64,000 bases of DNA, from NCBI GenBank assembly GCA_902493595.1, contig CABUPU010000002.1, positions 9,942-73,941 on the forward strand, in the 5' to 3' direction. The notes under the pieces were generated by a model. The model did not search any database and was not told the DNA's origin. It was given only the letters and a program-made list of their open reading frames with translations. The DNA comes from an uncultured Mycoplasma sp. (GTDB taxonomy: Bacteria > Bacillota_I > Bacilli_A > RF39 > UBA660). Position numbers and translations under genes: made by a program. Shown here one piece after another: positions 1,462 to 4,932 of this stretch. The number at the start of each line of letters is the position of its first letter. The stretch's first letter is position 1.

Positions 1462-2091
1462 AATTATTATGATGAAATCAAAGAAAAATTATTAAAAAAT
1501 GAGATTTATACAAAGGTAAAGGATTATTCTAAAGAAAAAAATAAAGTTCTTACTTATTTTGAAGTAGGTAAACTTTTAAGTGAAGCAGGAAAAGAATATG
1601 GCAATGATATAATTGGTAGTTATGCCGAAAAATTAGCTATTGAAGTAGGTAAAAAATATAATGTTAGAATACTCCGTAGAATTAGACAGTTTTATAATGT
1701 TTTTAAAGATGAAAAATGGTCGCCATCGGCGACCGTTTTGACCTGGAGTCACTATACAGAACTTTTGGCGTTAAATGATATTAATAAAATAAATTATTAC
1801 ATTGATATTTGTAAAAAACAAAGCTTAAGTAGAAATGATTTAAGAAATAAAATCAAATCCAATGAATATGAAAGACTAAGCGAGGAAACTAAAAATAAAC
1901 TAGTTACAAATGAAGAATTAAAACTACCTGATTTAGTACCAGATCCTTTATTAATTAAAAGTGAATTTGATAAGGAAAAAATAAATGAATATGTACTTAA
2001 AGAGGCGATACTTAATAATTTAGATAACTTTATAAAACAGTTAGGTAATGGTTTTCTTTATGCAGGAAACGAATATAAAATAACAAGTTAG
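1462..2091 (+). pseudogene. DUF1016 (YhcG family) N-domain-only paralog, copy 0. The start codon is mutated (ACG where the other copies have ATG).
   Basis: The open frame reads NYYDEIKEKLLKNEIYTKVKDYSKEKNKVLTYFEVGKLL...LTWSHYTELL...NGFLYAGNEYKITS. It is ~90% identical to the 3031-3663 copy. A TAA stop lies at 1453-1455, and the first in-frame start is TTG at 1738. The spacer gtttaaacggtaaatt aligns with gttaaaatgataaatt of the other copies. Confidence 0.6.
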
Positions 2092-2106
2092 AAAGGAAGT
2101 GTTAAA

Positions 2107-3015
2107 ATGATAAATTATTATGATGAAATTAAAGAGAAATTATTAAAAAATGAAATCTATGCAAAGGTAAAAGATTATTCAAAAGAAAGAAATAAAGTTC
2201 TTACTTATTTTGAAGTAGGTAAACTTTTAAACGATGCTGGTAAAGAATATGGTAAAAACATTATTGGCCAATATGCAGAAAAATTAGTTAACGAAGTGGG
2301 CAAAAAATATAATCGTAGAACTTTATTTAGAATGAAGCAATTTTATAACTTGCTTGAAAAGCAAAATAGCGAACAAAAAGTGTCACCATTGGTGACACAA
2401 TTGACGTGGAGCCATTATATTGTTCTTTTACCTTTAAAAAATGTAGATGAAATAAAATATTATATTGATGTTTGTGAAAAAAGAAATCTTACAAAAAGAG
2501 AGCTACAATCATTGATAAAATCCAAAGAATATGAAAGACTAAGCGAGAAAACTAAGAATAAATTAATAACTAATGAAGAATTAAAACTACCTGATTTAGT
2601 ACCAGATCCTTTATTAATTAAGAGTGAATTTAATATAGAACAATTAACTGAATATGCACTAAAACAGTCAATACTAAATAATTTAGATAACTTTCTAACT
2701 CAGTTAGGAAATGGCTTTAGTTATATTGGAAATGAATACAAAATGAAAGTTGGTAATAATTATAATTATATCGATTTACTTTTGTATAACTTTAAATATA
2801 AGTGCTTTGTAGTTATTGAACTTAAGGTGACTGAACTTAAAAAAGAACATATAGGCCAAGTACAAGTTTATATGAACTATATTGATAAGAACATTAAAGA
2901 TATATCTGATAATAAAACCATTGGCATAATTATATGTGCAAGAAATAATAAATGCATAATTGAGTATTGCTCTGATGAAAGAATATTTGCAAGAGAATTT
3001 AAAATAACAAGTTAG
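2107..3015 (+). CDS. DUF1016/YhcG-family PD-(D/E)XK nuclease, full length (copy 1).
   Basis: 302 aa. The N-domain motifs KNIIGQYAEKL, RRTLFRMKQFY and SPLVTQLTWSHY match those I recall from DUF1016 proteins. The C-terminal nuclease core is IDLLLYNFKYKCFVVIELKVTELKKEHIGQ...IGIIICARNNKCIIEY (D...E-L-K). It has the RBS GAAAGGAAGTG. Confidence 0.8.
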   Translation: MINYYDEIKEKLLKNEIYAKVKDYSKERNKVLTYFEVGKLLNDAGKEYGKNIIGQYAEKLVNEVGKKYNRRTLFRMKQFYNLLEKQNSEQKVSPLVTQLTWSHYIVLLPLKNVDEIKYYIDVCEKRNLTKRELQSLIKSKEYERLSEKTKNKLITNEELKLPDLVPDPLLIKSEFNIEQLTEYALKQSILNNLDNFLTQLGNGFSYIGNEYKMKVGNNYNYIDLLLYNFKYKCFVVIELKVTELKKEHIGQVQVYMNYIDKNIKDISDNKTIGIIICARNNKCIIEYCSDERIFAREFKITS

Positions 3016-3030
3016 AAAGGAAGTGATTAA

Positions 3031-3663
3031 ATGAATTATTATGATGAAATCAAAGAAAAATTATTAAAAAATGAAGTTTATGCAAAGGTAAAGGATTATT
3101 CTAAAGAAAGAAATAAAGTTCTTACTTATTTTGAGGTAGGTAAACTTTTAAGCGAGGCTGGCAAAGAATATGGTAATGATATTATCGGTAAATATGCTGA
3201 TAAATTAACAATTGAAGTAGGTAAAAAGTATAACACTAGAACACTTCGAAGCATTAGGCAATTTTATAATGTTTTTAGGGATAAAAAATGGCCCACATTG
3301 TGGAGCAAATTGCCTTGGAGCCATATAAGGGAATTATTACCATTAAAAAATGAGAATGCTATTAGCTATTATTTAAATAGTGCTATTAATCTGTCATTAA
3401 CTCAACGTGAATTAAACGAAAAAATCAAATCCAAAGAATATGAAAGACTTGGTGAGGAAACAAAAAATAAATTAGTTACAAATGAAGAACTAAAATTACC
3501 TGATTTAGTACCAGATCCTTTATTAATTAAGAGTGAATTTAATATAGAACAATTAACTGAATATGCACTTAAAGAGACGATACTTAATAATTTAGATAAC
3601 TTTTTAAAACAATTAGGTAATGGTTTTCTTTATGCAGGAAACGAATATAAAATAACAAGTTAG
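3031..3663 (+). CDS. DUF1016 N-domain-only paralog (copy 2), ending at NEYKITS without the nuclease domain.
   Basis: 210 aa with the same N-terminal domain. It stops right after GNEYKITS, whereas the long copies continue GNEYKMKVG...REFKITS. This is consistent with an in-frame deletion between the two EYKI/EFKI repeats. Confidence 0.7.
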   Translation: MNYYDEIKEKLLKNEVYAKVKDYSKERNKVLTYFEVGKLLSEAGKEYGNDIIGKYADKLTIEVGKKYNTRTLRSIRQFYNVFRDKKWPTLWSKLPWSHIRELLPLKNENAISYYLNSAINLSLTQRELNEKIKSKEYERLGEETKNKLVTNEELKLPDLVPDPLLIKSEFNIEQLTEYALKETILNNLDNFLKQLGNGFLYAGNEYKITS

Positions 3664-3678
3664 AAAGGAAGTGTTAAA

Positions 3679-4581
3679 ATGATAAATTATTATGATGAAA
3701 TTAAAGAGAAATTATTAAAAAATGAAATCTATGCAAAAGTTAAAGATTATTCAAAGGAAAGGAATAAAGTTCTTACTTATTTTGAAGTAGGTAAACTTTT
3801 AAGTGAAGCTGGTAAAGAATATGGTAAAAATATTATAGGTCAATATGCTGATAAATTAGTTAATGAAGTAGGCAAAAAATATAATTTAAGAACTTTATAT
3901 AATATGAGAAAATTTTATGAATTATTTAGTAACGAAAAATTGTACACACTGTGTTCAATTTTGACCTGGAGTCACTATAGAGAACTTTTATCATTAAAAA
4001 ATATTGATGAGATTAATTATTATATTAAAATATGTGAACAACGAAATTTTGGTGTAAGAGAACTAAAAAAAATTATTAAATCCAATGAATATGAAAGACT
4101 TAGCGAAGATACTAAAAATAAATTAGTTACTAATGAAGAACTTAAACTACGTGATTTAGTACCAGATCCTTTATTAATTAAGAGTGAATTTAATATAGAA
4201 CAATTAACTGAATATGCACTAAAACAGTCAATACTAAATAATTTAGATAACTTTTTAACTCAGTTAGGAAATGGTTTTAGTTATATTGGAAATGAATATA
4301 AAATTAAAATAGGAAATAATTATAATTATATTGATTTACTTTTATTTAATATAGAGTACAGCTGTTATGTTGTTATTGAGTTAAAGGTCACTGAACTAAA
4401 AAAAGAACATATAGGTCAAACTGAAGTTTATATGAACTATGTAGATAAAAATGTTAAGAAACCTTATCATGATAATACTATTGGCATAATTATATGTGCA
4501 AGAAATAATAAATGTATAATTGAATATTGCTCTGATGAAAGAATCTTTGTAAGAGAATTTAAAATAGAAGGAAGTGTTTAA
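3679..4581 (+). CDS. DUF1016/YhcG-family PD-(D/E)XK nuclease, full length (copy 3).
   Basis: 300 aa and ~85% identical to copy 1. The nuclease motifs IDLLLFNIEYSCYVVIELKVTELKKEHIGQ are conserved. Confidence 0.8.
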   Translation: MINYYDEIKEKLLKNEIYAKVKDYSKERNKVLTYFEVGKLLSEAGKEYGKNIIGQYADKLVNEVGKKYNLRTLYNMRKFYELFSNEKLYTLCSILTWSHYRELLSLKNIDEINYYIKICEQRNFGVRELKKIIKSNEYERLSEDTKNKLVTNEELKLRDLVPDPLLIKSEFNIEQLTEYALKQSILNNLDNFLTQLGNGFSYIGNEYKIKIGNNYNYIDLLLFNIEYSCYVVIELKVTELKKEHIGQTEVYMNYVDKNVKKPYHDNTIGIIICARNNKCIIEYCSDERIFVREFKIEGSV

Positions 4582-4932
4582 ATGATAAATTATTATGATG
4601 AAATTAAAGAAAAGTTATTAAAAAATGAAATCTATGCAAAGGTAAAGGATTATTCTAAAGAAAGAAATAAAGTTCTTACATATTTTGAAGTAGGTAAACT
4701 TTTAAGTGAGGCAGGAAAAGAGTATGGTAAAAACATTATTGGACAATATGCAGAAAAGTTAGTTAACGAAGTGGGCATAAAATATAATTTAAGAACTTTA
4801 TATAATATGAGAAAATTTTATGAATTATTTAGTAACGAAAAATTGTACACACTGTGTTCAATTTTGACCTGGAGTCACTATAGAGAACTTTTACCTTTAA
4901 AAAATATAAACGAAGTACCTTATTTAGAATGA
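4582..4932 (+). pseudogene. DUF1016 paralog remnant (copy 4), truncated and rearranged after ~110 codons.
   Basis: The first 330 nt are near-identical to copy 3. After PLKNI the sequence jumps to a stretch resembling an earlier part of the gene (ttatttagaatgaaacaatttcataa, versus ttatttagaatgaagcaattttataa in copy 1) in another frame. A stop follows. Confidence 0.6.

Follow-up and report, generated by a model that had tools for sequence, protein, structure and literature searches.

Why would each gene of a tandem array carry a palindrome of its own sequence at one and the same place in its reading frame? The question is raised by a 64,000-nucleotide stretch of DNA from an uncultured Mycoplasma sp. 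(contig CABUPU010000002.1), called the window here, in which positions 1440-4932 are occupied by five DUF1016 genes arranged head-to-tail, all on the + strand (copies 0 to 4, Table 1). A first-pass annotation had pointed to a palindrome in each copy, just upstream of the same conserved codons, and had proposed that selection acts there on a nucleic acid structure rather than on the protein. In this work we show that DUF1016/YhcG genes contain a DNA-level, odd, perfect palindrome fixed in the codon register, with arms of 9 nt in the clade of this organism and of up to 16 nt elsewhere, and that its sequence drifts while the arms remain Watson-Crick complementary.

A codon-fixed palindrome in DUF1016/YhcG genes

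All coordinates of the palindromes in the first-pass annotation were correct. In a DNA alignment of the five copies the dyads have one centre column in common, namely the first base of codon 4 in the heptapeptide which precedes the L(T/S/P)WSH motif; the dyad is therefore at the same codon positions in every copy, as had been claimed, that of copy 2 being decayed. In copy 0 a 7-bp GC stem extends through a T:G pair and AAAA/TTTT to 12-nt arms (1713-1724/1728-1739). The 9-nt arms of copy 1 flank one free base, and the palindrome of copy 3, which has a single T.T mismatch, has a perfect counterpart in relatives encoding LNTLCSI. In copy 2 pairing is limited to CCACA-T-TGTGG (3293-3303), that is 7/9 in the 9-nt register. 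The folding check that had been suggested was run as single-stranded DNA: the palindromes of copies 0, 1 and 3 folded better than shuffled sequences (-11.3 kcal/mol, z -4.5; -9.4 kcal/mol, z -2.9; -6.8 kcal/mol, z -2.2), and that of copy 2 did not (z +0.8).

To see the site in relatives, we used DNA from metagenomes (79 loci), from species-representative genomes (80 loci) and from contigs encoding a protein identical to copy 1, which together gave 153 distinct sites verified by hidden Markov model (HMM), all from uncultured Bacilli of gut and rumen. Nine of nine Watson-Crick pairs were found in 90 of them, eight in 51, seven in 11 and six in one. Control centres within ±135 nt in the same genes gave 9/9 in 0 of 39,360 cases and 8/9 in 0.05%. 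At least 64 different arms of 9 nt occur in the clade, and all four bases are found at the centre. In an alignment of 122 distinct 31-mers, 96.1% of the cells are paired and two-sided changes occur at all nine pairs; the covariation score is 0.759, compared with 0.169 ± 0.013 after shuffling (reached in 0/500), and pairing drops to 25-43% when the partners are slid by 1-3 columns. The dyad at this position is far beyond chance. A "flip" signature of the loop was also sought at the central base and rejected: all six pairings occur (CT 11, AT 8, AC 7, CG 6, AG 3, GT 3), so complementary pairs are not favoured.

The symmetry was shown to override both codon usage and amino acid sequence. When the heptapeptides were kept and their codons redrawn from the genes' own usage, 9/9 pairing arose in 0.03% of trials compared with 56% observed, with a mean of 4.2 pairs compared with 8.3. 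At the six third-codon positions within the arms, the base complements its partner in 134-156 of 160 sites, where 25-78 would be expected. The arms have a GC content of 57% and the flanks 23%, and rare codons are recruited into the dyad (TCG 48% compared with 3% elsewhere, GCG 56% with 5%, GTG 82% with 9%). The residues themselves covary at positions 1/7, 2/6 and 3/5 of the heptapeptide (120 close homologues), and they do so along base complementarity: P pairs with V/G/A, T with W/S/C, S with T, N/K with S, A with Q, W with K/I/N and V with Q/L/H. The complementary third bases and the recruited rare codons strongly support the earlier proposal that dyad symmetry of the nucleic acid, and not the peptide, is selected or maintained.

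Is this a peculiarity of one clade? The family is large: a search with one window copy among 1.84 billion proteins gave 7,506 cluster representatives at E <= 0.001, and tblastn with YhcG of E. coli matched 474 plasmid records. Our distant sample consisted of a spread of plasmid-borne homologues, 28-62% identical to YhcG, and of viral contigs (3 loci). A dyad in the same register was present in 16 of these 19 homologues, from about nine phyla, and in most of them this spot is the strongest palindrome of the entire open reading frame (ORF). The arms are perfect and 14 nt long in Burkholderia and perfect and 15 nt long in Arthrobacter; they measure 13 nt in Hymenobacter and Moraxella, 14 nt in an IncHI/IncP plasmid, 12 nt in Cetobacterium and the cyanobacterium Kovacikia, 10 nt in Deinococcus and 9 nt in Collinsella. 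Plasmid pTTS12 of P. putida has 12-nt arms plus a second dyad of 10 located 48 nt downstream. Weaker dyads were seen in Meiothermus, Rhodococcus and Citrobacter, and the result was negative or unclear in Granulicella, Legionella and Parabacteroides (3 of the 19). The peptides tell the same story: among the heptapeptides of 62 cluster representatives (28-57% identical), 39 permit a 9/9 palindrome and 13 more permit 8/9, compared with 0.8% and 4.8% of control heptapeptides. The first-pass annotation, which had treated the palindromes as a feature of this array, was thus right about the copies and too narrow in scope. It had also named the findings that would speak against it, namely absence of the symmetry from unrelated DUF1016 genes and its explanation by the codons; unrelated genes do carry the dyad and the codons do not explain it, so the claim survives its own objection. 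No palindrome in DUF1016 or yhcG is described in the literature that we searched.

In yhcG of E. coli K-12 the palindrome reads AAAGATTTGGCAGACG-C-TGTCTGCCAAATCTTT, in an identical register, with 15 Watson-Crick pairs and one G:T among 16. It is one of three dyads (NC_000913.3, 3368126-3368236) which have their centres at 3368142, 3368181 and 3368220, a spacing of exactly 39 nt (13 codons) that leaves all three in one codon register, encode HQTMSGE, PQTPSAE and WQTLSAK, and have 12/13, 14/16 and 15 (+1 G:T)/16 pairs. They share a CAGAC core; the outer arms differ, each being self-complementary, and identity between the units is only 20-26/39. The triplication of the dyad unit is specific to this lineage. 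In 3,506 E. coli genomes the sequence is conserved to at least 99%.

Two side observations concern these homologues. In E. coli NZ_CP092449.1 and NZ_AP042682.1, yhcG breaks off precisely where the palindrome has its 3' edge (...GCCAAAT|tgagagg...), and a 101-aa ORF annotated "transposase" follows; of 3,559 matching genomes, about 860 match a 45-nt query just in part, and the junction was the same in both that were inspected. Distant homologues also fall into two core classes: genes with L-S-W-S-H have ...ACA-N-TGT... or CG-N-TG (peptide x-T-L-S-x), and those with L-P-W-G-H have ...CAG-N-CTG... (peptide Q-P-V-x). The classes may mean that the W-S/G-H helix reads the core, or may just follow phylogeny.

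The constraint is DNA-like and not RNA-like, since G:T mismatches are no commoner than A:C (G:T 31, A:C 30, other 52). Outside the innermost pair, at pairs 2-9, there are 7 G:U cells and 37 non-pairs. The innermost pair, which is impossible in a hairpin, is kept in 134 of 160 sites where 78 would be expected, and one-sided arm changes are almost nil in the covariation alignment.

Possible roles of the dyad

What kind of protein is encoded around the palindrome? The N-terminal domain of DUF1016 is predicted to have a helix-turn-helix fold superposable on the DNA-binding domains of ParB/Spo0J/KorB, a likeness which the first-pass description of the copies had missed. The structural model points to a ParB/KorB-like DNA-binding domain, for which DNA binding is predicted, fused to a NucS/Shedu-like PD-(D/E)XK nuclease. 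Sequence and profile searches of the PDB gave no ParB match and no usable homologue, and Pfam gave no match to the ParB/Srx (CTPase) N-terminal domain; the N-terminal 60 aa are modelled as a helical hairpin. The heptapeptide lies in the loop of lowest confidence in the model (predicted local distance difference test, pLDDT, 64-75), a flexible linker which joins the putative recognition helix to the (L-S-W-S-H) helix after it. The protein is most variable at aa 81-100 and is variable again at about aa 111-140, and the N-terminus and the nuclease domain are conserved; the dyad is at the centre of the hypervariable region. The PADLOC HMMs of PDC-S02, a phage defence candidate, match copy 1 (E 6.9e-63) and E. 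coli YhcG (E 2.2e-131), and no functional study of phage protection by DUF1016/YhcG was found in the literature searched.

Translational coupling of DUF1016 within other operons is common, examples being hsdM-DUF1016-hsdS and integrase-DUF1016 (PMC9881135). In our plasmid loci (L169, L177, L182, L173, L175 and L179), the gene overlaps an upstream tyrosine integrase gene by 4 nt in three cases, and in three it lies between hsdM and hsdS or adjoins hsdS; plasmid DUF1016 genes are usually without a promoter region of their own. A large number of metagenomic homologues have a length of 391-427 aa and their WSH motif near residue 200 or 398; they resemble read-through fusions in which a truncated array copy runs on into the full copy that follows.

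The explanation that we put forward, tentatively and as a possible one, is that the dyad is a DNA-level cis element with pairing-corrected symmetry, retained as a putative private docking site of the gene's own product. Arm identity would be kept by arm-to-arm templated correction of the quasi-palindrome during DNA synthesis, which would yield double changes in one step and no tolerance of G:T. Homogenisation of inverted-repeat arms by template switching has precedents (PMC8794818, PMC7202029, PMC8604942). The encoded nuclease, as a dimeric DNA-binding protein, would use the dyad of its own gene in the manner of an operator or parS, and docking could serve autogenous control or the anchoring of a potentially toxic and usually promoter-less nuclease. 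With the site (the lock) and the variable DNA-binding domain (the key) within about 200 bp, the two would be inherited and shuffled as one cassette, and such a cassette would keep co-resident paralogues orthogonal. In favour of the proposal we count the symmetry and covariation statistics, the presence of the dyad in one register across the family, its DNA-like mismatches, the low-confidence loop and the hypervariability around it, the outer arm bases that go with helix type, the different dyads of co-resident tandem copies, the coupling into other operons, and the tandem dyads of E. coli (3 copies) and P. putida (2 copies), which have a core in common.

Several observations weigh against this proposal. 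The arms GTGTCGCCA, GTGTCGACA, GTGTCGCAG and GTGTCACCA were all found on one identical 25-aa recognition-helix background; the inner dyad positions thus vary, always compensated, while the recognition helix is identical, and the three E. coli dyads differ in their outer arms and are each individually self-complementary. The varied arms on one helix and the differing E. coli arms cannot all be read in sequence by one protein, which means that the symmetry is maintained by pairing or templating itself and not by base readout by a dimer. Helix type is tracked only by the outer three arm bases (GTG, TGG, TTG, GGT, GTC), a correlation confounded by phylogeny. The GC-rich arms in their 23% GC context suggest selection for duplex or hairpin stability. 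Arm length differs across lineages (8-16 nt), the dyad seems to be missing from about 15% of family members, and there is one site per gene, with no second copies of the dyad in the flanks or elsewhere in E. coli genomes. Finally, the similarity to ParB in sequence is weak (phmmer E 0.62 to Spo0J 6sdk; hhalign probability 11.6%, E 0.0026, in a consistent register).

A bolder form of the docking proposal is that these are "self-addressed" nucleases, the hypervariable ParB-like domain of each allele recognising the palindrome in its own codons. We consider this distinctly unlikely. If true, it could provide allele-specific control or exclusion of incoming elements carrying the same allele, or else self-inflicted breaks driving a switch among tandem and silent cassettes, like a bacterial mating-type switch, and the arrays, the hypervariability and the family-wide dyad would all be explained.

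Could the dyad instead initiate recombination? In this explanation, to which we give a small but real chance, a hairpin or cruciform would be nicked or cut by the NucS/Hjc-like nuclease that the gene itself encodes or by enzymes of the host, and repair from paralogous, often truncated, cassettes would diversify the DNA-binding domain (compare the G-quadruplex (G4) of pilE and the inverted repeat of vlsE). The centring of hypervariability on the dyad fits with this. So do the tandem DUF1016 arrays, found in 44 of 149 loci, which include N-terminal-only or nuclease-deleted copies and are shuffled in composition between strains. Mosaic junctions occur at the dyad edge (for example at +16 between loci L064 and L141), the E. 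coli yhcG truncations lie exactly at its 3' edge, E. coli and P. putida have tandem duplications of the dyad unit, and symmetry without sequence conservation suits a structure. However, a change-point scan placed just 13 of 90 recombination junctions within ±20 nt of the dyad where about 9 are expected, a weak enrichment in a scan which was ungapped, so that indels distort it, and in which the pairs are not independent. A hotspot was rejected on this count, and of the recombination or cleavage site suggested in the first pass we can say that it is possible but that junctions are only weakly concentrated there. Moreover, no double-sided arm changes were found among close relatives (at least 93% flank identity), so there is no sign of rapid switching. 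The very close relatives had just occasional one-sided mismatches, and arm hypermutation was likewise rejected, none being seen in close pairs. The dyad is kept equally in donor-less single-copy genes such as E. coli yhcG, the explanation depends on second-order selection for evolvability, and arms of 9 nt are short for cruciform extrusion.

Perhaps the palindrome has no function at all. An ancestral dyad in a tolerant linker could have perpetuated itself neutrally, being perfect only through template switching or arm-to-arm correction, and this too we regard as unlikely though worth serious attention. The mismatches do look like raw mutation input, with G:T, A:C and other mismatches in the numbers given above; the arms vary in length, some being extended; each of the three diverged E. 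coli dyads has stayed self-complementary; and the linker is of low confidence in the structural model. The dyad also persists in truncated copies: after removal of 5 regular-expression false positives from 26 listed, 9 of the 21 genuine ones are perfect and 18 have at least 8/9 pairs, so that the dyad is kept slightly less well there (43% perfect, compared with 60%). The arms diverge about as fast as the flanks, chiefly by double-sided changes, in an ungapped comparison which indels distort; at 65-70% flank identity, double-sided differences per pair position amount to 0.39 and one-sided ones to 0.06. The mechanism is documented elsewhere (PMC8794818, PMC7202029, PMC8604942). Neutrality, on the other hand, leaves one family, one site and about nine phyla unexplained, as well as the coincidence with a protein fold that binds palindromes. 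Perfect inverted repeats rich in GC are otherwise almost absent (2 in the 64-kb window, one of them the dyad, and 0 at other centres), and the GC enrichment over a 23% background needs an additional survivorship argument.

An mRNA hairpin which affects translation, mRNA stability or processing in polycistronic operons is very improbable. In its favour, the stems are stable, the genes lie inside operons and the register is fixed relative to the reading frame. Nevertheless, G:U is tolerated no more than other mismatches, which is atypical of RNA helices, the innermost pair is kept although a hairpin cannot form it, and a U-tract on the sense strand is absent in most lineages. A scan of the window against Rfam 15 at gathering score gave no family at the dyads, only tRNA and 6S RNA. 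The translational pause or attenuator once suggested is disfavoured by the same mismatch counts.

Still less credible is an intrinsic terminator for antisense transcription, in which the minus strand would supply a GC-rich stem followed by TTTTT. A terminator scan does call the minus strand of copies 0, 1 and 2 (in the region, 4 sites compared with 0.4 expected) and finds none on the sense strand, but it is positive because of clade-specific codons: the T-run is the complement of conserved Lys/Glu codons of this low-GC clade, the only one in which the minus strand fits. In E. coli, Burkholderia, Arthrobacter and others the T-run is missing on both sides, and the conservation across the family would be left unexplained.

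A protein-level artefact, whether from canonical V-x-P-L-V-x-Q codons or from cross-strand covariation in a beta-hairpin, can be dismissed practically outright: the amino acid covariation in its favour follows base complementarity, synonymous third bases pair far above expectation, resampled codons for the same peptides almost never give the dyad, and the model shows the segment not as a beta-hairpin but as a loop of low confidence containing a 3-residue helix.

Other candidates were tried and rejected. For a -1 frameshift site (an A-run plus hairpin), the A-run is outside the X_XXY_YYZ register, has zero spacing and is absent elsewhere. An internal start codon in the loop (codon 4 = NTG) is not general, since the LPWGH subfamily has CCN there. 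A site of parS or operator type is by definition conserved and multi-copy, and here there are at least 64 arms in one clade and no second copy. The IS200/RAYT-like hairpin of the first-pass annotation, or any REP/RAYT or IS200/IS605 hairpin, does not agree with dyads that are intragenic, individually unique and found again neither in the flanks nor elsewhere in E. coli genomes; the transposase remnant nearby is of the DDE type (DDE_Tnp_1). An integron attC was excluded because the dyad is perfect and mid-gene, and no intI was called in the relative loci L001-L003.

Why should the dyad matter? DUF1016/YhcG is a very common, uncharacterised nuclease family which is present in E. coli K-12, occurs often within Type I restriction-modification operons and is the PDC-S02 candidate. 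A codon-locked palindrome across about nine phyla is among the clearest nucleic acid constraints inside a coding region, and E. coli yhcG with its three dyads offers an immediate experimental handle. If the dyad is the protein's own site, a mobile, promoter-less nuclease would carry its control or address with it, and the orthogonality of paralogues would be explained. If it is neutral, it would be a striking natural case of long-term palindrome upkeep by template switching within a gene.

The array and other features of the window

The copies differ in completeness. Both domains, DUF1016_N (PF17761) and the YhcG PD-(D/E)XK domain (PF06250), are present in copies 1 and 3, with scores of 88.7 and 125-128 bits (Pfam cut-offs about 32.5-32.8), and only the N-domain exceeds the Pfam gathering score in copies 0, 2 and 4. 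The gaps between copies are about 15 nt, each with a Shine-Dalgarno sequence. The nuclease core is deleted in copy 0, and its start codon is changed from ATG to ACG relative to the other copies (window 1457-1459); because the start codon is lost, copy 0 is probably a pseudogene or a silent cassette. The deletion is the same in copy 2. At window 2064-2091 and 3636-3663, compared with 2988-3015, ...GAATATAAAAT is joined to the ...AAAATAACAAGTTAG tail of the full-length copy; the deletion falls between the short repeats GAATA(T/C)AAAAT and GAATTTAAAAT, and in both copies the reading frame ends identically in ...NEYKITS and a stop.

Human gut metagenome contigs encode a protein identical to copy 1 in the same gene order, and the nearest named genomes are those of uncultured Bacilli, such as "Mycoplasma sp. 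CAG:472". The dyads of co-resident tandem copies are almost always different. Array composition is shuffled between strains: locus L001 is without copy 0 and ends in a WKPLVSK fragment instead of LYTLCSI. The pattern resembles that of expressed and silent specificity cassettes.

Upstream of the array, window 1-1100 on the minus strand contains fragmented remains of a DDE transposase, of which L001 has an intact 298-aa version with a weak PF01609 match, and a terminator-like hairpin with a T-run (window 1402-1419, + strand) lies immediately before copy 0. The only other GC-rich perfect inverted repeat in the 64 kb, GTTGTTGGTGACCT-CCAAT-AGGTCACCAACAAC at window 17340-17372, has 14-nt arms and a 5-nt loop. 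Its position is intergenic (the ORF before it ends at 17172, the one after it starts at 17410), and it may be an operator or a terminator.

Table 1. Positions of the DUF1016 copies, their palindromes and RNA genes in the window
Feature	Position	Strand	Description
DUF1016 copy 0	1468-2091	+	Pfam DUF1016_N (1e-23) plus YhcG_C fragment; alignment
DUF1016 copy 1	2107-3015	+	full length, 302 aa; ParB/KorB-like N-domain (predicted) and PD-(D/E)XK nuclease domain
DUF1016 copy 2	3031-3663	+	210 aa; internal nuclease-core deletion identical to that of copy 0
DUF1016 copy 3	3679-4581	+	full length, 300 aa
DUF1016 copy 4	4582-4932	+	N-terminal fragment, 116 aa; variable cassette same as copy 3
Palindrome of copy 0	1713-1739		centre 1726; core GGTCGCC-ATC-GGCGACC (1718-1734); encodes WSPSATV
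Palindrome of copy 1	2380-2398		centre 2389; GTGTCACCA-T-TGGTGACAC; 9/9 Watson-Crick; encodes VSPLVTQ (aa 92-98)
Palindrome of copy 2 (decayed)	3289-3307		centre 3298; encodes WPTLWSK
Palindrome of copy 3	3936-3962		centre 3949; AAAATTGTACACA-C-TGTGTTCAATTTT; 13-nt arms, one T.T mismatch; encodes LYTLCSI
Palindrome of copy 4	4839-4865		centre 4852; identical to palindrome of copy 3
tRNA gene	7868-7940	-	Rfam scan
6S RNA	40757-40942	+	Rfam scan, 53.3 bits

Comparison with known systems

The dyad is most like a ParB/KorB site that a gene carries for its own product, or like the origin of pT181, which lies in repC. In Bacillus subtilis a parS site lies inside the coding sequence of parB (spo0J), and Noc with its Noc-binding site (NBS) is a comparable case. 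However, parS keeps its sequence across bacteria, has several copies near the origin and is of even length, whereas the DUF1016 dyad is hypervariable, single-copy and odd, and is about 45 codons upstream of the position corresponding to parS in parB (spo0J). The DUF1016 effector, unlike ParB, is a nuclease, and no ParB/Srx CTPase domain was detected. The OB sites of KorB in IncP plasmids (PDB 1r71) are likewise conserved, many per plasmid and located at promoters, and KorB has no nuclease domain.

In rolling-circle plasmids of the pT181 family the origin lies inside repC and contains Rep-specific inverted repeats. There too, a nuclease gene holds its own cognate, cruciform-capable palindrome in the coding sequence, and specificity co-diverges among the members. 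The difference is that Rep is an HUH nickase which initiates replication, and there is no evidence that DUF1016 genes are replicons. With attC, REP/RAYT, IS200/IS605 and vlsE of Borrelia the dyad shares recognition or conservation by shape and not by sequence; in the vlsE repeat, which adjoins cassette arrays, the presence is conserved and the sequence is not. Those sites, however, are intergenic or at cassette ends, repeated, imperfect with extrahelical bases (attC) and served by a dedicated recombinase or transposase, none of which applies to the DUF1016 dyad. Homogenisation by template switching matches it in one-step compensation, in perfect Watson-Crick arms, in arm extension and in its occurrence also within coding sequences (PMC8794818, PMC7202029, PMC8604942). 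The events described so far are sporadic, however, and not locked to one position across a protein family and many phyla, as the DUF1016 dyad is.

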